IMG/VR virus record: IMGVR_UViG_3300017724_000001
Direction: 5' to 3' (one strand)
Length of the DNA stretch: 20,000 nucleotides
DNA from: an uncultured virus (IMG/VR IMGVR_UViG_3300017724_000001)
Lineage: Duplodnaviria; Heunggongvirae; Uroviricota; Caudoviricetes; Crassvirales
The notes under the pieces were generated by a model. It was not told the DNA's origin, ran no database searches, and was given only the letters and a program-made list of their open reading frames with translations. The translations under genes were made by a program, and so were the position numbers. This document shows, in pieces, positions 309 through 18,607 of this stretch. Position 1 is the stretch's first letter. Every line of letters begins with the position of its first letter.

Positions 309-372
309 TTGGTGTTAAAGGTTTGCGCCTATTTTTATATGCTTGCGCCTATTTTTCGTTGGTGTTAAAGGT
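309..372. repeat. Nested direct repeats in an A-B-B-A arrangement at the 3' end of the tRNA cluster
   Basis: TTGGTGTTAAAGGT occurs at 309-322 and 359-372. TTGCGCCTATTTTT occurs at 323-336 and 343-356. Confidence 0.85.
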
Positions 373-445
373 GGACCCTACAGGACTTGAACCTGTGACC
401 TATCCGTTATGAGCGGAGTGCTCTGACCAACTGAGCTAAGAGTCC
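372..445 (-). tRNA. tRNA with CAT anticodon, most likely tRNA-Ile2 (lysidine type, reads ATA)
   Basis: Reverse complement GGACTCTTAGCTCAGTTGGTCAGAGCACTCCGCTCATAACGGATAGGTCACAGGTTCAAGTCCTGTAGGGTCCA folds as a cloverleaf. It has a G1-C72 pair, lacks the initiator GGG/CCC anticodon stem and closely resembles bacterial tRNA-Ile(CAU). It is followed by CCT, so CCA is not fully encoded. Confidence 0.9.
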
Positions 446-534
446 TGGTAGCCGGAGTGGGATTTGAACCCACACGGGCATTACTGCCCAAAGGATTTTA
501 AGTCCTTCATGTCTACCAATTTCATCATCCGGCC
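446..534 (-). tRNA. tRNA-Leu(TAA)
   Basis: GGCCGGATGATGAAATTGGTAGACATGAAGGACTTAAAATCCTTTGGGCAGTAATGCCCGTGTGGGTTCAAATCCCACTCCGGCTACCA. Anticodon TAA, long variable arm (GGGCA/TGCCC) and encoded CCA. Confidence 0.93.
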
Positions 535-539
535 ATTTG

Positions 540-613
540 TGATCCCACTAGGATTTGAAGCTAGAACCTACAGCTTAGAAGGCTGTTGCTCTATCCAGTT
601 GAGCTATAGGACC
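540..613 (-). tRNA. tRNA-Arg(TCT)
   Basis: GGTCCTATAGCTCAACTGGATAGAGCAACAGCCTTCTAAGCTGTAGGTTCTAGCTTCAAATCCTAGTGGGATCA. Anticodon arm ACAGC-CT-TCT-AA-GCTGT. The T-stem has C at the normally invariant G53. Confidence 0.88.
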
Positions 614-2990: not shown

Positions 2991-3540
2991 CTTCTTGAAA
3001 ATTTAGTTCTGTTTGTTTTACTTTTTTAAAATAAGTTATGAATCTCTTTTGTATGTTAAGAGCATGCAGAGGACTAACGGTAGTTTCTACAAACTTAAGG
3101 TTTTTATCATCATCATGATACATTAAATTCACTTTTATAGTAGAATAAAACGGGTCATAAGGATCAGAACCCCAAGAAGAGTCACCAACTACTTGACCAT
3201 ATACATAATAGTCACTATACTCATCACCTTTACCTAGTAATCCCATGTCTTCAAGAACATCTAATTCAAATTCACTGCCTTGATGATAGTTTGGTGGTAC
3301 TAGTCTAACATAACTACCAATCTCTGTTGGTACAAAAGTTCTTTCTGTTAGCATAAGATGTATTATAGCTTCTAGAGCTGAATCTTTAACTTCTTTAGAT
3401 ATTATATCTGTTATAAATTTTAAATTGTTTGGTTTATTGATAGATTTTTGATCAAATAAACCTGAAAGGATGCCTTTTAATACTTCATCCTGTACGTGAT
3501 ATTGTTTTGCCATTGATTTTATATTGTAATCAAAGACCAT
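2956..3540 (-). CDS. Hypothetical protein; the true start may be ATG 3513 (MAKQYH...)
   Basis: 194-aa ORF. The second ATG is preceded by the A-rich AATATAAAATCA. Confidence 0.75.
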   Translation of the reverse strand: MVFDYNIKSMAKQYHVQDEVLKGILSGLFDQKSINKPNNLKFITDIISKEVKDSALEAIIHLMLTERTFVPTEIGSYVRLVPPNYHQGSEFELDVLEDMGLLGKGDEYSDYYVYGQVVGDSSWGSDPYDPFYSTIKVNLMYHDDDKNLKFVETTVSPLHALNIQKRFITYFKKVKQTELNFQEDGKDINGTIEL

Positions 3541-3664
3541 ACTGCAAACAAGTATGAAATGTAACAGTAATAGTCTTTGATCTGATTAAGAACACAGCCT
3601 CAATACCTAGTATTAATATAATATATAATTACTGGTATTGTTAGTGGTCCATATACGAGACTTT

Positions 3665-3976
3665 TTATTTTCTTCTTTGGAAGATTATAGTTAAGAAAGG
3701 CAACTTCAATTCCCAATGACGAGTTACTTTCTCTATGTCAAGACCAATTCCAGGTCTTGCGTTTACTCTCATCCTAGGCAAAAGGTATGTTCTATCCATA
3801 TGAATAGCATAGAAGATTGCATTGATGAAAGTTAATGCGGTTACAATACCAAAGGCAACTATAAGAATAGGTGACCAAGGTGTGTAATAAACTAGATTAA
3901 CTAGTACTACTGTCATAGCAAAAGGTAGAACAGCTACGAAGATTAACTTGATAAGATACTTGAATAAATATTTCAT
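3665..3976 (-). CDS. Membrane protein with two predicted TM helices
   Basis: Two hydrophobic segments (LIFVAVLPFAMTVVLVNLVYY and ILIVAFGIVTALTFINAIFYAI). Confidence 0.7.
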   Translation of the reverse strand: MKYLFKYLIKLIFVAVLPFAMTVVLVNLVYYTPWSPILIVAFGIVTALTFINAIFYAIHMDRTYLLPRMRVNARPGIGLDIEKVTRHWELKLPFLTIIFQRRK

Positions 3977-4001
3977 GATATATAATTTAATTGATTAATG
4001 A

Positions 4002-4172
4002 TTAACGACCCCATTTGGATCTCTTGTGTCTCTTTTTAGGTTTCCAATAGTTCTTCTTTGCAAAATGCTTTTTACTTTTCTTGACAGAGCATTTACGAGA
4101 AGAACCACATGATTGTAACATTGGTCCACCTATGAATAGTAATAGAATAAAATATAAGAATTGTTTTTTCAT
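4002..4172 (-). CDS. Small, very basic lipoprotein (56 aa)
   Basis: Manual translation MKKQFLYFILLLFIGGPMLQSCGSSRKCSVKKSKKHFAKKNYWKPKKRHKRSKWGR*. It has an MKK n-region, a hydrophobic core and the lipobox-like LQSC. Confidence 0.7.
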   Translation of the reverse strand: MKKQFLYFILLLFIGGPMLQSCGSSRKCSVKKSKKHFAKKNYWKPKKRHKRSKWGR

Positions 4173-4199
4173 AACGTTTTAGTATTAGATTTTAAAAAA

Positions 4200-5230
4200 G
4201 CCAGTCTGTTTTATCCAACTACAACTGGCATGGCTGTCCTATGAATACTCATAGTTAGGAATAAGTCATTTGATTATTAGGTGAGACCAACACCTACCAA
4301 CATACTCATTGGTTGATTAGACACTATAGGTAATTAACCTACTTCACTTCATGTGTGTCACACTAGTCTAGAATTACCTAGACACGTATCTTTATATTGT
4401 TCTTGAGTTAAAAATAAAGAGCCTGATTACCTCTTAACGACCGTTTACCCGGTTGACGGTGACTGTTACATATTCAACAGACAAGTCAAATACACGGTTT
4501 CAGGTTGTCAAACCTTACAGGTACATTGACCCTAACGTATACGAGGTTAAGCTGACAAACTACTCCTCTTGGTGTACAAAGTGACACCCAACACTCCCGT
4601 TGCCACGGGTTTAAAAGATATAACTAATAGAGATATTCACTCCGCTATTTACCTCCATCCATGCGGTAGGATTATTAGTTATTATGATAAAGCTAATAAC
4701 CATAACCTGTAGTCTTATTGGTATTGTTGATCCACATTCCTCTAGTTATGGTATTAGCATATTGAGTTTAGATTACTGTAAGTTCTCTCTTACGCCAGCA
4801 ACTCACTGGATTAGACCAACCATGTTTATACAGGAATTTATCTATGTGCCTGTTTTAATATTGCGGGTAATATGACTCTTATCCTATAGAGGAAGAGACA
4901 AAGACTACCCTTGTTATATTGTTGAGTGTAATAGTTACGCTTGTAGCTACGTTAGCTATATTTATATTATTAGTAACACTCATAGTTACAAGAGTGGTAA
5001 AAGGTGGTATTTTGTGGGTATAAGACCTCACATTCAGAGTGACACACACAAAAAAAATAAAATTACCACACTTTTATAACTTAATTCAATTGTTTTTGAC
5101 TCTATGTAACAATAGTTAGTAGTTATTGCTTGAGAGTAGTAACATTCTGTACTAATTCTATTTTTATAAGTGCTAAACATAGTTTGGGAGCAGACGTGCT
5201 GAAAAGCACGCCCACCCACAAGCTACTATG
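4200..5230 (+). ncRNA. Candidate large structured non-coding element (RNA or ssDNA)
   Basis: About 1 kb with no credible ORF and more than 12 adjacent stems. Most wobble pairs read as G-T on the + strand. Confidence 0.45.
5179..5210 (+). promoter_or_regulatory. Box plus hairpin element, copy 1: ATAGTTTGGGAGCAGA-CGTGCT-GAAA-AGCACG
   Basis: The 16-nt box is identical to 5781-5796 and is followed directly by a perfect 6-bp stem with a GAAA loop. Confidence 0.6.
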
Positions 5231-5236
5231 TTACAA

Positions 5237-5698
5237 TTACGCATCTACAGTTTCCTGCTTAAACGCATTCAAGCTCTCTACAGCTACAGTAGAGTTGTTA
5301 GCCTCTCTTATCTCAGCACCATTGGTGTGCTGAATAAAAGTAGACTGAGCATTAAGGTCTGAGGTAAACTCTGTAGTTCTGTAAATAGGTTTATCCCCTT
5401 TCATACATACTATCTTTGAGTCTCCGGCATACTTTAATTTGTATGTCAAATCCTTATCATTGAATGGCTCAAGTTGCTCACGCACAATAATCTTACCTGT
5501 CAATGGTTTTGAGTGGTCCATAGACTCAAGCAAAGCTATTGGGCCTAATACTAATGCTGACAAAGATTTATCTGCATACCAACCATTTCTAAGTTCAACG
5601 GCCTTTTGTTCATAGATTACAAAGCCTATATCTTTGTTCTTTGTTTTACTGATGAATGTTCCGTCTTCATTCTTGCGTACTGTTACTAAATTGTTCAT
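5237..5698 (-). CDS. Hypothetical protein, paralog of 1504-2118 without the acidic tail
   Basis: Shares GKII..E.LEPFN, LKYAGD, I.C...(G/D).PIYR.TE and I.HTNG..IR.AN with 1504-2118. Confidence 0.8.
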   Translation of the reverse strand: MNNLVTVRKNEDGTFISKTKNKDIGFVIYEQKAVELRNGWYADKSLSALVLGPIALLESMDHSKPLTGKIIVREQLEPFNDKDLTYKLKYAGDSKIVCMKGDKPIYRTTEFTSDLNAQSTFIQHTNGAEIREANNSTVAVESLNAFKQETVDA

Positions 5699-5780
5699 AA
5701 TGAAATTATTTAATTATTAAATTGATTACAATAGTGATAAGGCTATTGCTGAAAAGGTTAAACGGCTTATCCCGCTATAT

Positions 5781-5812
5781 ATAGTTTGGGAGCAGAGGCA
5801 TTGAAAAATGCC
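5781..5812 (+). promoter_or_regulatory. Box plus hairpin element, copy 2: ATAGTTTGGGAGCAGA-GGCATT-GAAA-AATGCC
   Basis: Same box, same spacing and same loop as copy 1. The stem sequence differs but is fully paired. Confidence 0.6.
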
Positions 5813-6040
5813 GTATATGCACACAGTGAGTCCATCATATATATACTACTGATGAATACAAACAAATCAATGATGTATTGATATTCAGTAGATACCTGAC
5901 GTAGACACAGTAGCACTACACTACTCCGCTTTGCTACCACACAATAGTCATACATTCTTTTTTTTTGTACAACTTTATGCAGTTAGCAAGTGCAGTTAGA
6001 GTTCCTATGCAAACATAGGGGGTACCCGCACTGCAAAATT

Positions 6041-6055
6041 TAGTTGGGGAGCAGA
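6041..6055 (+). promoter_or_regulatory. Box element, copy 3 (TAGTTGGGGAGCAGA, one mismatch, no adjacent 6-bp hairpin)
   Basis: 14 of 15 positions match copies 1 and 2. Confidence 0.45.
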
Positions 6056-6215
6056 TCCTATATACCTCTTGAAAGTGCCAAACACACAATTTTTTGGTGG
6101 GGCGTAGGGACAATTTTACAGTAGACGGGGGGATGTTGTGGCTCAAAAATTTTTATAGGACGGGGAATTTTAGTATATTGTTTTTATAGAAGAGTTACTC
6201 ACTAAACAAAATACT

Positions 6216-6539
6216 ATGGCTGATTGGGATGATAACGGGGAAAAAGAAACTGGTGGTTTATCTGACATACAGCAAATGCAGTTAGATGCTATTATATTAG
6301 ACACAGCATACAACAATGCATGGATGTTACTGACCGGGGAAATTACTTTTGAAGAATTAATATCAACTCAATTTAGTGAGGGAAAAGAGTTAGTGATGGC
6401 TTATGATCCAGACAATGGACCGAAACTTGAAGAATTAGAAAATATGATAGCGTACTTCGTAGAAGAAGAAGACTATGAGAAGTGTGCTGCATTAAGGGAT
6501 ATAATGTTTAAAGCGTATCCGGAAACTTATGAAGCTTAG
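6216..6539 (+). CDS. Acidic hypothetical protein with a C-terminal UVR (UvrB/C)-like motif
   Basis: LENMIAYFVEEEDYEKCAALRD resembles the UVR coiled-coil motif. It is the first gene of the plus-strand arm. Confidence 0.65.
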   Translation: MADWDDNGEKETGGLSDIQQMQLDAIILDTAYNNAWMLLTGEITFEELISTQFSEGKELVMAYDPDNGPKLEELENMIAYFVEEEDYEKCAALRDIMFKAYPETYEA

Positions 6540-6544
6540 AAATT

Positions 6545-6754
6545 ATGGCATTAAAAAGAAAAACAACTAAAAAGAAAAAAAGTACCGTAAATAGTTCAGG
6601 GAATTATACTAAACCGGGAATGCGTAAAAGATTATTTAATTCTATCAAGGCTGGTAGTAAGGGTGGTGCACCTGGTCAGTGGTCTGCACGTAAAGCACAA
6701 ATGCTTGCTAAACGTTACAAAGCTAACGGTGGTGGATACAAATCCAAGAAATGA
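6545..6754 (+). CDS. Small basic protein, similar to the N-terminal half of the DUF5872 family
   Basis: YTKPGMRKRLFNSIKAGSKGGAPGQWSARKAQMLAKRYKANGGGYK, recognised from memory of this family. Confidence 0.7.
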   Translation: MALKRKTTKKKKSTVNSSGNYTKPGMRKRLFNSIKAGSKGGAPGQWSARKAQMLAKRYKANGGGYKSKK

Positions 6755-6972
6755 TGAAAGACCTAACCCTAAATATTGGTAATATAATCTGGATCATAGG
6801 TATTATATTCACAATGGGTATAGCATATAGCCAAATAGCACAATTATCAGATGATATGGTTGTACTAGAAGCTAGGCTAGAAAAAAAAATAAAAATAATC
6901 AATGAATCGGAAGATAGGATTGTAGAATTAGAGAAAGAAATTATTAGGCTACAAGAATCAAGATGTAAGTAA
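6751..6972 (+). CDS. Single-TM plus coiled-coil protein (possible holin- or spanin-like)
   Basis: N-terminal hydrophobic helix followed by a heptad-rich region. It has an ATGA overlap with the upstream gene. Confidence 0.65.
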   Translation: MMKDLTLNIGNIIWIIGIIFTMGIAYSQIAQLSDDMVVLEARLEKKIKIINESEDRIVELEKEIIRLQESRCK

Positions 6973-7214
6973 TGGCAAAGACTAAACAACAAAAAAGTCT
7001 AACTAGATGGACTAAGCAGAAATGGAGAACGGCAAGCGGAAAGAAATCTTCCGAAACCGGAGAGGTATATGCACCTTCTAGAACTATATCTAAACTTAAG
7101 AGTACTAAGAAAGGTAAAAAGAAATTGGCTGCAGCTAATGCAAAGAAACGTGCTGCTACCAAGAAAGGTAAACAACACGCAAGTCACGGTTTGCATAAAG
7201 GAAAGAAAAGATAA
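6972..7214 (+). CDS. Small basic protein, similar to the C-terminal half of the DUF5872 family
   Basis: QQKSLTRWTKQKWRTASGKKS..TGEVYAP....KRAATKKGKQH. It is joined to both neighbours by TAATG coupling. Confidence 0.65.
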   Translation: MAKTKQQKSLTRWTKQKWRTASGKKSSETGEVYAPSRTISKLKSTKKGKKKLAAANAKKRAATKKGKQHASHGLHKGKKR

Positions 7215-7507
7215 TGGCAGTTAAGAAAAAAGATAGTAGATTAGCTAAAGCTGGTGTATCAGGATATAACAAGCCTAAACGTACACCTGGACACCCTAAG
7301 AAGTCCCATATTGTTGTAGCCAAAGAAGGAGATAAGATTAAGACTATACGTTTTGGACAAAAAGGTGCAAAGACTGCTGGTAAACCAAAAGCAGGTGAGT
7401 CAGCTAAAATGAAAGCTAAACGTAAGAGTTTTAAGGCTAGGCATGGCAAAAACATAAAGAAAGGCAAAATGTCTGCTGCTTATTGGGCAGACAAAGTTAA
7501 ATGGTAG
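7214..7507 (+). CDS. Small basic conserved phage protein
   Basis: Lys-rich, with K.IRFGQ.G, RKSFKARH and SAAYWA.KVKW motifs common in aquatic phage proteins. Confidence 0.75.
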   Translation: MAVKKKDSRLAKAGVSGYNKPKRTPGHPKKSHIVVAKEGDKIKTIRFGQKGAKTAGKPKAGESAKMKAKRKSFKARHGKNIKKGKMSAAYWADKVKW

Positions 7508-7510
7508 GAT

Positions 7511-7726
7511 ATGACAGCAGCACAGTTAAGAGAATTGGGATTTACCAAAATGGGTCATCATGAAGATGATGATTGGCCAGAAGGATATTTCTACTTTAGT
7601 ATTGAGTTTGGAGATATGCTATTTCATACCGGGGGTAATGATGAAGCTGAAGAAGATGGGGGATGGTATATTCAAGATCCTACAATGACTATTAAAATAT
7701 GGCAATATTCGGAAGCTAAAATGTAA
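7511..7726 (+). CDS. Hypothetical acidic protein, possibly extending to 7770 through a frameshift
   Basis: Co-oriented ORF starting 3 nt after the previous stop codon. Confidence 0.6.
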   Translation: MTAAQLRELGFTKMGHHEDDDWPEGYFYFSIEFGDMLFHTGGNDEAEEDGGWYIQDPTMTIKIWQYSEAKM

Positions 7727-7796
7727 TTGACGTACTTAGACGTAATACGGTTTCTAAAATAAGTATCTAAACTTTTTTTATTTAAACTATTTTTTA

Positions 7797-7804
7797 TACA
7801 TTTG
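7797..7804 (+). promoter_or_regulatory. Bacteroidota-type -7 element (TACATTTG)
   Basis: Matches TAnnTTTG. It is intergenic, about 28 nt upstream of the ATG at 7833. Confidence 0.5.
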
Positions 7805-7832
7805 TTTTTATTAACTTATAAAAAATAGTAAA

Positions 7833-8144
7833 ATGTCAGATTCAAAAACCAATTCAAATATTCAAGACAAAGATCCAAAAATGTCTAAAGAAGAAATGTC
7901 AGCACGTAGAGATGAAATTACTCAATTCTACAATGATAATATTCCACACTTGGAAGTTCAAGCAGATTATGAAACGTTATTAGCTACTATAGAAAAGGCT
8001 AGAGCAGAGCGTATGCAAGCCCAAATGTTTATGGCACAGCAATATGCTGCTCAAAAAGGTGAAGGTGCACCAGATCTTAATACAGAAGAAGGTAAAGCTT
8101 TTCAAGAAGCAATGGTAAAAGCTATGCAAGATGAAACAGCTTAA
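7833..8144 (+). CDS. Hypothetical helical protein (103 aa)
   Basis: ORF with an A-rich leader that overlaps the endolysin start. Confidence 0.7.
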   Translation: MSDSKTNSNIQDKDPKMSKEEMSARRDEITQFYNDNIPHLEVQADYETLLATIEKARAERMQAQMFMAQQYAAQKGEGAPDLNTEEGKAFQEAMVKAMQDETA

Positions 8145-17290: not shown

Positions 17291-18607
17291 ATGAGTACAA
17301 CAACAGAAACACAGCCTGTGAAAAGTAACGTAGCACAAAATGTAGAAGTTAATTTAGATGAGATATTCAACGCTGCTCCAAGTGGTGCTGATATGATTCA
17401 AGATAATAAATCTCAACCTAAAAATATCTTCTCTGGCTTAACTGAAAAAGCTGATATGTCTTTTGCAGATCCTGATAATGACGATGCTACTGATGTATTA
17501 GCTAAGTCAGAAGAAAAAGAAGAGACTACGGAAGAAGTAAAAGATGAAGTAAGTGAAGTAGTTGAAGAAAAAACTGAAACCTCAACTGAAAGCGTTGAAG
17601 AAATCTTTGGTGAACTTGGGCAAGAAGAAACTGAAGAAGTAGAAACAAAAGAAAAAAGAGGAAGAAAAACTATATCAGGTATATCTGATGTATTTTCAAA
17701 ACTTATCAAAGATGATAAGATAGTTCCTTTTGATGATGATAAAGAACTAGAAGATTATACTGCAAAAGATTGGGAGGAGCTTATTCAAGCTAATTTAGAA
17801 GAAAAAGCTAATCAAGTTAGAAGAGAAACTCCAAAACAATTTTTTCAAAGTTTACCTCAAGAATTACAAATAGCTGCTAAATATGTAGCTGATGGTGGTA
17901 AAGATCTAAAAGGTTTATTTACAACACTTGGTCAAGTAGAAGAAACTAAAACTATTGATGTTAAAAGTGTTAGTGGTCAAGAAAGAATCATTAAAGAATA
18001 CTTAAGTGCTACTGGATATGGTACTGCTGAAGATATTCAAGAAGAAATAGAAATTTGGAAAGACTTAGGTAAGCTTGAAACACAAGCAAATAAGTTTAAG
18101 CCAAAATTAGATAAGATGCAAGAAAAAGTTGTTGCACAAAAACTTGAAGAGCAAGAGCTTAAAAAGAAACAACAAGAAAATGCATCTCAAGCATATATGA
18201 AAAATGTATATGAAACATTAAAAGAAGGTAAGTTAGGTGATATTAAAGTAGATAGAAAGACTCAAGCTATGTTATATAATGGTTTAGTTCAGCCTAATTA
18301 CCCATCAGTAAGTGGGCGTAATACTAATTTATTAGGACACCTACTTGAAAAATATCAATTTGTGGAACCTAATTATGCATTAATTTCTGAAGCCTTGTGG
18401 TTATTACAAGATCCAACAGGATATAAAGCAAAGATAATGGATAAGGGTGCACAAAAGAGTGTTGAGAAGACGGTTAGAAAATTAAAAAGTGAACAATCAA
18501 ATGTAGGTGGTGCATCATTAGGTGTAAACCAAGCTGAAAAAGAATCTACAAAGAGAAGCACTAAAAGAAAAATTCAAAGACCAACCAACATATTTAAACG
18601 AATTTAA
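17291..18607 (+). CDS. Acidic head-assembly or scaffold-like protein
   Basis: E-rich disordered N-terminal half and helical C-terminal half. It lies between the portal and the capsid gene, as in crAss-like phages. Confidence 0.7.
   Translation: MSTTTETQPVKSNVAQNVEVNLDEIFNAAPSGADMIQDNKSQPKNIFSGLTEKADMSFADPDNDDATDVLAKSEEKEETTEEVKDEVSEVVEEKTETSTESVEEIFGELGQEETEEVETKEKRGRKTISGISDVFSKLIKDDKIVPFDDDKELEDYTAKDWEELIQANLEEKANQVRRETPKQFFQSLPQELQIAAKYVADGGKDLKGLFTTLGQVEETKTIDVKSVSGQERIIKEYLSATGYGTAEDIQEEIEIWKDLGKLETQANKFKPKLDKMQEKVVAQKLEEQELKKKQQENASQAYMKNVYETLKEGKLGDIKVDRKTQAMLYNGLVQPNYPSVSGRNTNLLGHLLEKYQFVEPNYALISEALWLLQDPTGYKAKIMDKGAQKSVEKTVRKLKSEQSNVGGASLGVNQAEKESTKRSTKRKIQRPTNIFKRI

Follow-up and report, generated by a model that had tools for sequence, protein, structure and literature searches.

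Given that two exact copies of a short box, each fused to a hairpin, lie at the head of the leftward gene arm of an uncultured marine phage of the order Crassvirales, we asked what kind of signal these elements form and which enzyme might read them. The question concerns a 20,000-nt stretch of phage DNA (here called the window), for which a sequence-only reading had proposed a hairpin promoter of the type used by injected virion RNA polymerases. Our analysis favors boxes that act as phage-specific leftward early promoters, likeliest read by an injected crAss-type polymerase, and we put the probability of this interpretation at about 0.5. The element itself is most likely a sequence promoter with an optional hairpin and not an N4-style hairpin promoter.

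The box ATAGTTTGGGAGCAGA occurs exactly at 5179-5194 (box A) and 5781-5796 (box B), both on the plus strand, and a third copy, TTAGTTGGGGAGCAGA (box C), lies at 6040-6055, with two mismatches against the 16-mer and one against the 15-mer that starts at 6041. The sequence-only reading had placed a spacer-less 6-bp stem with a GAAA loop behind the boxes at 5179 and 5781 and a one-mismatch box with no hairpin at 6041, and both descriptions were reproduced exactly, the stretch after the third box having no significant fold. Also as described there, all three boxes are intergenic, share one orientation and stand at the head of the leftward arm, with A and B flanking the minus-strand ORF at 5237-5698. 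When up to three mismatches were allowed, the window contained three box matches against 0.23 expected, a number reached in 0 of 200 shuffles. We scanned the whole of the closest complete genome (G001; 114,219 bp, with 98-99.8% identity to the window), and pattern search (reversed control, 0), a position weight matrix (three sites at 30-42 bits and no other at 10 bits or above) and a covariance model each found only three copies. These few co-oriented copies, three in 114 kb and all on one strand, stand together where the replication arm begins. An Rfam search over 3500-6600 (E<=1) and a search of the region's DNA against named phages both returned no match.

Comparison of 54 distinct instances from relatives revealed that the signal extends over approximately 25 nt (about -10 to +15), longer than first noted, with an A-rich spacer and a C at position -7 in every one of the 54. 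So extended, and listed on the minus strand, box A covers 5170-5194 (plus-strand text GTGCTAAACA-TAGTTTGGGAGCAGA; 60.7 bits including its hairpin), box B covers 5772-5796 (60.1 bits including its hairpin), and box C, which has no hairpin, covers 6031-6055 (31 bits for the box only). Covariance model scores ranged from 42 to 64 bits with a hairpin versus 11.5 to 31 bits for the box alone.

To collect relatives we used the first gene of the rightward structural arm (6216-6539, plus strand) as the query, which yielded 36 contigs encoding a relative of its 107-aa product (38-96% identity); 20 lineage representatives served for distance and hairpin counts, and the 107-aa protein itself matched nothing among named phages. 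The box is kept in 34 of the 36 contigs, and all matches with the GGGAG core lie on the same strand, bearing out the expectation of the sequence-only reading that the box recurs in related phages. In 19 of the 20 representatives, the first minus-strand gene has a box 43-86 nt to the right of its start codon. In the window the corresponding distance is 84 nt, from the start codon at 5698 to box B, which is upstream when read leftward. Box C is the copy kept in every lineage. It lies 159-184 nt from the rightward 107-aa gene (122 nt in one lineage), and its context taken by itself fits either a leftward or a rightward direction. The G003 lineage carries three intergenic boxes 69, 52 and 33 nt ahead of minus-strand genes, and because one of these lies approximately 2.9 kb inside the minus arm, a rightward promoter at that inner box would be antisense. 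A further box-like match in G003, at 17435, falls within a coding ORF and was dismissed as a chance occurrence. The gene that the boxes bracket varies by lineage, encoding either 153-174 aa or about 109 aa with no BLAST similarity between the versions, a pattern consistent with a promoter-gene-promoter layout and not with an antisense device tied to one particular gene. A metagenome scan for the box followed by a GRAA-loop hairpin gave no new stem variant among the matches listed, which were mostly chance and of which at least 107 had no hairpin.

We turn to the hairpins themselves. Hairpin A (CGTGCT-GAAA-AGCACG; 5195-5210, plus strand) adjoins box A, 26 nt past the stop codon of the 153-aa gene at 5237-5698, and hairpin B (GGCATT-GAAA-AATGCC; 5797-5812, plus strand) adjoins box B; four of the six pairs differ between the two, and every pair is Watson-Crick. 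Folded as single-stranded DNA, they reach -8.0 kcal/mol (A; z -3.3) and -5.6 kcal/mol (B; z -3.6), and no significant fold follows box C (z +0.7). Across nine distinct sequences, 94.4% of cells were paired and five of six pairs changed on both sides, values reached in 0 of 500 shuffles, which upholds the earlier claim that the structure of the stem is conserved over its sequence. The stems are 6-7 bp long and belong to one subgroup, the loops are exclusively GAAA or GGAA, and the sole wobble variant, TGTGCT/AGCACG (T.G), pairs on the plus strand only. The G(A/G)AA loop constraint is likewise a plus-strand property, and would fall on the template strand only if transcription runs leftward, as we infer from gene context. 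A hairpin is present in five of the 20 lineage representatives and never at box C, the other 15 having the box alone, and the conserved bases lie beside the hairpin and not within it, the stems varying freely. Since they are found in only five of 20 lineages, the hairpins cannot be essential, and on this comparative evidence they are real but a local accessory. The proposed hairpin promoter therefore survives in part: the boxes do head the leftward arm, with a box at a constrained distance upstream of its first gene in 19 of 20 representatives, a polymerase homologue is present, and the hairpin stems covary, but the hairpin is dispensable and the bases held constant are outside it.

The leftward arm encodes helicases, a DnaB-like helicase, Sak4, a primase, RusA, a DNA polymerase and a replication-initiator-like protein, and by its gene content is the replication module. 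Its first gene (5237-5698, minus strand), between boxes A and B, encodes the 153-aa protein, which has homologues in six relatives and no Pfam or PHROGs family, with Atlas leads all below 0.9. A conserved non-coding element (4855-5085, no strand assigned), with an AT-rich core and GTGGTA/GGTGGTA/GTGGGTA repeats, follows closely on the leftward side of box A and, in relatives, of the distal box. Its sequence is origin-like, and it is likely the target of transcription from box A, which would flag a conserved origin-like element as the first thing transcribed. RNAalifold over 4845-5095 gave no real consensus fold on either strand (nine and three pairs, none with double changes). Box A and several distal boxes are followed downstream by ORF-free stretches of 266-1200 nt, which counts against a leftward reading in that such transcription would have to yield a non-coding product. 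A block reading ACCTCTT..GCCAAACACACAA..TTTTGG (6064-6097, no strand assigned), on the right-hand side of box C, is also kept across lineages.

The rightward arm has a motif of its own. GTATATT[AG]N, in the form ttttGTATATT, occurs 19 times in G001, and all eight intergenic copies lie on the rightward-arm strand, 28-111 nt ahead of structural or lysis genes, with none of the intergenic copies in that genome preceding a replication-arm gene. One copy, GTATATTGT after a T-rich run (6173-6181, plus strand), stands 35 nt ahead of the 107-aa gene. This promoter-like motif is probably the ordinary promoter type of the phage. The box bears no likeness to it and, with three copies only, is not repeated ahead of many genes. 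Because the rightward arm is supplied with its own promoter-like motif, the boxes most likely fire leftward, and the genome would then combine two transcription regimes, one marked by the box in the replication arm and the other by ttttGTATATT in the structural arm. A 72-bp "terminal repeat" in G001 was rejected as a physical genome end, since it lies inside a major-head-protein-like gene and so reflects an assembly overlap.

A 4607-aa ORF contains GADFDIDK at residue 3621, the crAss-type DFDID RNA polymerase motif. With the DFDID region as a tblastn query we recovered 103 records, the majority carrying crAssphage, crAss-like or Bacteroides phage names; the two top-ranked rows match a feature annotated "putative RNAP catalytic subunit", and the region also matches g066 of Cellulophaga phage phi14:2, "Catalytic RNA polymerase subunit", at E 1.7e-7. 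A plain sequence comparison with PDB chains gave no match. This genome carries, among its structural genes, a homologue of the crAss-type virion RNA polymerases, a candidate for the large virion enzyme whose presence the sequence-only reading had proposed to check. PHROGs scans of 94 ORFs (sets of 13, 12, 24 and 45, the 13 being window copies of G001 genes) found no second polymerase and no sigma factor, and no T7-like polymerase gene was found among the genome ORFs scanned. The arrangement is that of the gp66 class, with a DFDxD polymerase in a giant protein encoded among structural genes and, judged by gene context, with sites that head the replication module and point into it. To our knowledge, all crAss-like phages inject a giant RNA polymerase, and among them early 5' ends have been mapped in phi14:2 alone. 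Our literature search retrieved no definition of a promoter consensus for a crAss-type virion RNA polymerase later than the phi14:2 study, and a sharply defined signal of approximately 25 nt, conserved across lineages whose proteins are down to about 40% identity, offers a concrete template for testing the polymerase domain.

These features suggest a model in which the boxes start minus-strand transcription of the first units of the replication, or early, arm. Box C, and then box B 259 nt further on, would drive the 153-aa gene, and box A, just beyond that gene, would drive the 4855-5085 non-coding element and the genes past it. Written in the leftward sense, the putative signal is TCTGCTCCC(C/A/T)A(A/G)CTA, a 3-nt spacer and TTTG, approximately 25 nt in all and asymmetric, and an invariant G 7 nt past the box offers a plausible start point. 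The reader would most likely be the injected crAss-type RNA polymerase within the 4607-aa virion protein, by analogy with phi14:2. The plus-strand hairpins, on what would be the leftward template strand and directly upstream of the box, would be a subgroup accessory that may help to open or mark the DNA for a polymerase preferring single-stranded templates.

Comparison with known systems clarifies which parts of this model have precedent. In phage N4, early promoters P1-P3 are described in the relevant section of PMC4496689 as being read by the injected virion RNA polymerase gp50. The resemblance, as far as that account extends, lies in three co-oriented, phage-private signals at the head of the first-expressed genes, a polymerase carried in the virion, and a 5-7 bp hairpin whose stem varies while its purine loop, which can form a sheared G:A pair, stays fixed, on a strand that would here be the template if transcription runs leftward. 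The same section, however, places the conserved N4 bases (-17 to +1) inside an obligatory hairpin with a 3-nt loop, with recognition bases in stem and loop, whereas here the conserved stretch of approximately 25 nt runs beside a 4-nt-loop hairpin that is absent from one copy and from most lineages. The polymerases also belong to unrelated fold classes, two-barrel DFDxD here and, per the same section, T7-like in N4. N4-type promoters are read by a single-subunit virion enzyme and depend on supercoiling and SSB; the only polymerase candidate in the present genome is of the crAss two-barrel type.

Another parallel is phi14:2, whose replication module forms the early class and is transcribed by the rifampicin-resistant virion polymerase gp66 according to the relevant passages of bioRxiv 10.1101/2020.03.07.982082. 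Shared with it are a homologous DFDID polymerase region, a replication arm set against a structural arm, and long non-coding stretches near the head of the early arm, which those passages describe as highly transcribed in the early direction in phi14:2. The box itself, in contrast, is absent from phi14:2 (two matches at three mismatches versus seven in the reversed control). Direct repeats in the first 7 kb of phi14:2 were considered as a box analogue and rejected, being AT-rich leaders ahead of start codons instead. For the portal, identity to the listed crAss-like gut phages is only about 23%, indicating a distant lineage. T7-group promoters, as treated in PMC4496689 (relevant section), are 23-bp sequence promoters of a phage RNA polymerase, and share with the box a long, asymmetric, group-private conserved signal made up of an upstream recognition part, an AT-rich stretch and a G; that section attributes many promoters per genome to a T7-like, non-virion enzyme, in contrast to the three copies found here.

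Several other explanations would account for parts of these data. The gene context would be identical if the boxes were leftward early promoters used by the host RNA polymerase, with recognition depending either on a specificity factor (an alternative one or one supplied by the phage) or on TTTG serving as a -7-like element, a possibility we regard as unlikely. The Bacteroidota -7 element is TAnnTTTG, and the leftward signal ends in TTTG plus G, near this consensus and one base out of register. A sigma-70-like match also lies between box B and the 153-aa gene (minus strand, 5740-5713, 9/12), though the region is poorer in such matches than shuffles (5 versus 9.9) and none of them overlaps a box. 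The box is, moreover, unlike the motif used eight times on the rightward arm, it has no -33/-35 partner at host spacing, the 94 PHROGs-scanned ORFs include no sigma or specificity factor, and the phi14:2 passages assign the replication module to the virion enzyme. The same passages tell against our preferred reading on one point: for phi14:2 early transcripts they report no common upstream motif (Drobysheva et al., bioRxiv 10.1101/2020.03.07.982082), and this box is absent from that phage. A regulator would explain three asymmetric, co-oriented, strongly conserved sites in a control region equally well, so that the boxes might be double-stranded DNA sites for a phage protein, such as an early operator or replication initiator, beside the real promoters. 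They do adjoin the conserved AT-rich element with its GTGGTA repeats, and an 83-aa replication-initiator-like protein is encoded approximately 2.5 kb away. We nevertheless consider this quite doubtful, as the boxes lie 259, 602 and up to 2080 nt apart, unlike iterons in a cluster, the 43-86 nt start-codon offset with a single orientation suits a promoter better, and the covarying hairpin with its strand-specific loop points to a single-stranded form.

Two further readings place the functional transcript elsewhere, and both appear improbable, the second slightly more so. In the first, the boxes would be rightward promoters or 5'-leader elements of the structural arm, with the hairpin as an RNA stem-loop at the 5' end of a plus-strand transcript; the GAAA and GGAA loops fit an RNA GNRA tetraloop, nearly all lineages have box C at a steady distance before the 107-aa gene, and the GGGAG core recalls T7 class III transcripts, which begin like GGGAG. 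The structural arm's first gene, however, already has that arm's recurrent motif 35 nt upstream; transcription from boxes A, B and the distal copies would in all lineages cross the first minus-strand gene in antisense, a G003 copy lies deep within the minus arm, and no copy precedes any other rightward gene in 114 kb. Lambda nut sites consist of boxA and boxB, their RNA being co-directional with the genes controlled, and the order seen here, in which a conserved linear box directly precedes a short covarying hairpin with a loop of the GNRA type, within an early control region between divergent arms, would suit a nut-like module bound by an antitermination or processing factor on a plus transcript. 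Read as plus-strand RNA, however, boxes A and B would run opposite to a conserved gene, the G003 copies fall within the minus arm, and neither box C nor 15 of the 20 lineages have the hairpin. Hairpins acting instead as terminators or insulators of the preceding leftward unit would agree with the position of hairpin A just behind the 153-aa gene, but the minus strand offers no U tract, a UUUC/UUCC loop has no reason to stay fixed while stems drift, and hairpin B has no upstream gene to terminate.

Within the preferred reading of leftward early promoters, a narrower version holds that the box is the promoter of a crAss-type two-barrel virion polymerase, aided in a subgroup by a template-strand hairpin with a sheared-G:A purine loop. 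We regard this version as speculative; if it is true, the hairpin-promoter trick of N4 was independently reinvented in a polymerase family which is unrelated to that of N4 but shares its preference for single-stranded templates.

Part of 4000-7000 is contained in 20 of the 24 sequencing runs listed, seven of the 20 being recorded as RNA. Depth figures in two runs are higher over 4406-5930 than over 6360-8000, contig depth being a quantity that cannot rank regions. RNA-library contigs, which carry no strand or end information, span the boxes in four runs from four studies (4948-5753, 5304-5876, 5160-6387 and 5674-6136). The one terminator-like site detected lies at 4366, away from the hairpins.

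The window carries three box copies on the + strand: two exact matches to the core ATAGTTTGGGAGCAGA at 5179 and 5781 (boxes A and B, extended signal 5170-5194 and 5772-5796) and a third, TTAGTTGGGGAGCAGA, at 6040 (box C, 6031-6055). At up to 3 mismatches this gives 3 matches against 0.23 expected, a count reached in 0 of 200 shuffles. Boxes A and B are followed without a spacer by hairpins at 5195-5210 and 5797-5812, CGTGCT-GAAA-AGCACG and GGCATT-GAAA-AATGCC, respectively, whose stems differ in 4 of 6 pairs while keeping complementarity throughout. Folding as single-stranded DNA gave -8.0 and -5.6 kcal/mol (z about -3.3 and -3.6) for these hairpins and no significant fold for the stretch after the third box. 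The sequence-only reading had thus described both boxes and hairpins correctly, as judged by pattern search, stem pairing and folding. When we searched all 114,219 bp of G001, the nearest complete genome, three methods returned the same three boxes: a pattern search at up to 2 mismatches (reversed control, 0), a scan with a weight matrix derived from relatives, in which the boxes scored 41.9, 31.1 and 30.5 bits and nothing further reached 10, and a covariance model that combines the box with its hairpin. In this virus record the window corresponds to positions 124-20645, read as the reverse complement, at 98-99.8% identity. The record's 72-bp terminal repeat was ruled out as physical ends, since it lies inside a major-head-protein-like gene and is therefore an assembly overlap.

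We then looked beyond this genome. Scanning IMG/VR for the exact box returned at least 122 stretches, most of them lone chance matches in coding DNA, and among the matches listed one set has flanks in common with the window. Relatives were fetched as 36 loci by alignment of the 107-aa protein encoded at 6216-6539 (+), the first gene of the rightward arm, with encoded relatives at 38-96% identity. The proposal had been staked beforehand on conservation in related phages, and the box (up to 3 mismatches) is kept in 34 of the 36 loci; the other two are L177 and L167, the latter with only 90 nt of upstream DNA. All matches with a GGGAG core upstream of the 107-aa gene share its strand, and the only three opposite-strand matches each carry 3 mismatches and lack that core. 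Over 54 distinct instances the signal spans ~25 nt, with an invariant C at -7 (54/54), an A-rich spacer and then TAG(T/C)T(G/T/A)GGGAGCAGA.

The hairpins are confined to sites A and B and to the window's subgroup (5 of 20 representatives), where nine distinct sequences fall into four stem families, CGTGC(A)T, GCCTGT, (A)GGCATT and TGCATT; a metagenome scan added no new stem among the matches listed. Pairing covers 94.4% of cells in the alignment of the nine, and the exceptions come from a 7-bp variant aligned out of register. Both sides have changed in 5 of 6 pairs, a level of covariation reached in 0 of 500 shuffles, which upholds the claim that stem structure rather than stem sequence is conserved. 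Loops are GAAA or GGAA only, as in a GNRA-type loop that varies solely at its free second base, and the sole wobble variant, TGTGCT/AGCACG, pairs on the + strand only. Covariation, loop limits and the wobble variant together argue that the hairpin structure is under selection and that the constraint lies on the + strand, which would be the template DNA strand if transcription runs leftward. Box C lacks the hairpin, however, as do 15 of the 20 lineages, so the hairpin cannot be the core of the signal, contrary to the initial supposition; these sequence patterns instead mark it as a genuine accessory that is selected, strand-specific and limited to one subgroup. In hairpin-less lineages, purine-rich tracts of 30-35 nt, often with a second GAGCAGA, border the distal box on the hairpin side (L163 1830-1860, L173 1763-1800, L169 796-830, and similar tracts in other loci).

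The boxes lie between two divergent arms. From 6216 on, the + arm encodes small ORFs, an amidase, a nuclease, a large terminase, a portal (sharing only about 23% identity with portals of the listed crAss-like gut phages, and 27-33% with those of Cellulophaga phi4:1/phi17:2 and a Leptolyngbya phage) and a major-head-like protein. The minus arm, from 5698 leftward, encodes helicases, a DnaB-like helicase, Sak4, primase, RusA, an exonuclease, DNA polymerase and a replication-initiator-like protein, and by this gene content is the replication module. Three adjacent tRNA genes (Met-CAT, Leu-TAA and Arg-TCT; 370-613, minus strand) share the strand of this arm.

Four lines of gene context favour leftward firing of the boxes. 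Among the 20 lineage representatives, 19 have a box to the right of the first minus-strand gene, 43-86 nt from its start codon (84 in the window); L182 lacks a scored neighbour, its box being called inside a 62-aa ORF. Three intergenic boxes in the related G003 lineage precede minus-strand genes by 69, 52 and 33 nt, and the last of them is ~2.9 kb into the minus arm; a fourth match, positioned within an ORF, was set aside. The gene bracketed by boxes A and B (5237-5698, minus strand) differs by lineage, with 153-174 aa in the window's subgroup, about 109 aa elsewhere and no BLAST similarity, as a promoter-gene-promoter layout predicts. We also counted in favour of leftward boxes that the rightward arm has a signal of its own, ttttGTATATT[AG]N, probably this phage group's standard middle/late promoter. 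G001 has 19 copies of GTATATT[AG]N, 11 in coding DNA and 8 between genes; all 8 intergenic copies lie on the rightward-arm strand, follow a T-rich run and precede rightward-arm genes by 28-111 nt. One copy is at 6173-6181 (+) in the window, 35 nt ahead of the 107-aa gene, and the motif scan placed the others at G001 47732, 47807, 80258, 99163, 106526, 110386 and 111772 on the structural-arm strand. The context of box C alone is ambiguous and fits either direction, because its distance to the rightward 107-aa gene is also near-constant (159-184 nt; 122 in L181).

A large virion RNA polymerase had also been expected, and G001 encodes one at the level of homology. A 4607-aa ORF (57108-70931, minus strand; locus L133) carries a GADFDIDK polymerase motif at residue 3621, and the surrounding 1301 residues match 103 records, mostly named crAssphage, crAss-like or Bacteroides phages, the top two with the matched feature annotated 'putative RNAP catalytic subunit'. 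The same region matches g066 ('Catalytic RNA polymerase subunit') of the Cellulophaga phage phi14:2 at E 1.7e-7. A plain sequence search of PDB chains with this candidate gave no match, its first ~3000 residues matched no family, and the protein is about twice the size of phi14:2 gp66 (2184-aa open frame). PHROGs scans of 94 ORFs (13 + 12 + 24 + 45, the 13 being window copies of G001 genes) revealed no further candidate polymerase or sigma factor. The ORF belongs to a series of giant ORFs (1925, 1152, 987, 919, 2028 and 2095 aa), one of which has SLT, LysM and YkuD domains.

Collectively, the comparative sequence evidence suggests that the boxes are leftward early promoters (probability roughly 0.65), and we put at about even odds the joint claim that they are such promoters with the injected crAss-type polymerase as the best candidate reader. 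A nut-like RNA module would share the layout of box plus hairpin but would require the other strand, making it very improbable. Functionally, the putative leftward promoters come closest to the three early promoters of N4, although the boxes depart from the N4 class in two defining features, an obligatory hairpin and conserved bases inside it, and the polymerase class differs as well. In N4, according to PMC4496689, it is the hairpin on the template strand, with its sheared G:A loop, that is stable and recognised, a feature that the + strand loop constraint would parallel if transcription is leftward. The phi14:2 study (bioRxiv 10.1101/2020.03.07.982082) reports no common upstream motif for early 5' ends, a pattern search did not find this box in phi14:2, and we found no defined promoter for crAss-type virion polymerases in the literature since that study. 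The interest of the boxes lies in making this promoter specificity, so far undefined, directly testable.

The kilobase to the left of box A is poor in ORFs and contains a conserved element (4855-5085), which would be the target of leftward transcription from that box. The phi14:2 preprint (bioRxiv 10.1101/2020.03.07.982082) describes two long intergenic regions near the early-arm head that are very highly transcribed in the early direction; the layout is comparable, but the sequences are unrelated. In relatives the element adjoins the distal box on its leftward side, and its identity stays at 72-92% even across the most distant lineages (proteins 40-60%), far above the flanking genes. It shows no pattern suggestive of a reading frame, and neither strand yields a real consensus RNA fold. 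Its AT-rich core (GTTAGCTATATTTATAT) and GTGGTA/GGTGGTA/GTGGGTA repeats give it an origin-like look, and it is a candidate replication origin or unstructured RNA. A second non-coding block (4406-4685), without an Rfam match, is 86-97% identical in relatives against 70-81% in its flanks; beside it, ~4685-4855 is variable, with a ~98-nt indel between the window and G001 at about 4685. Around box C, an invariant GGGG within the palindrome GGGGGTACCC (6018-6027) adjoins the box on its leftward side, and the stretch from box C to the late motif holds the G-rich repeats GGTGGGGCGTAGGGAC, GACGGGGGGAT and GGACGGGGAA (6098-6170). The palindrome's GGGG and the repeats are conserved in all these lineages' control regions between the divergent arms, where they may serve as protein-binding sites.
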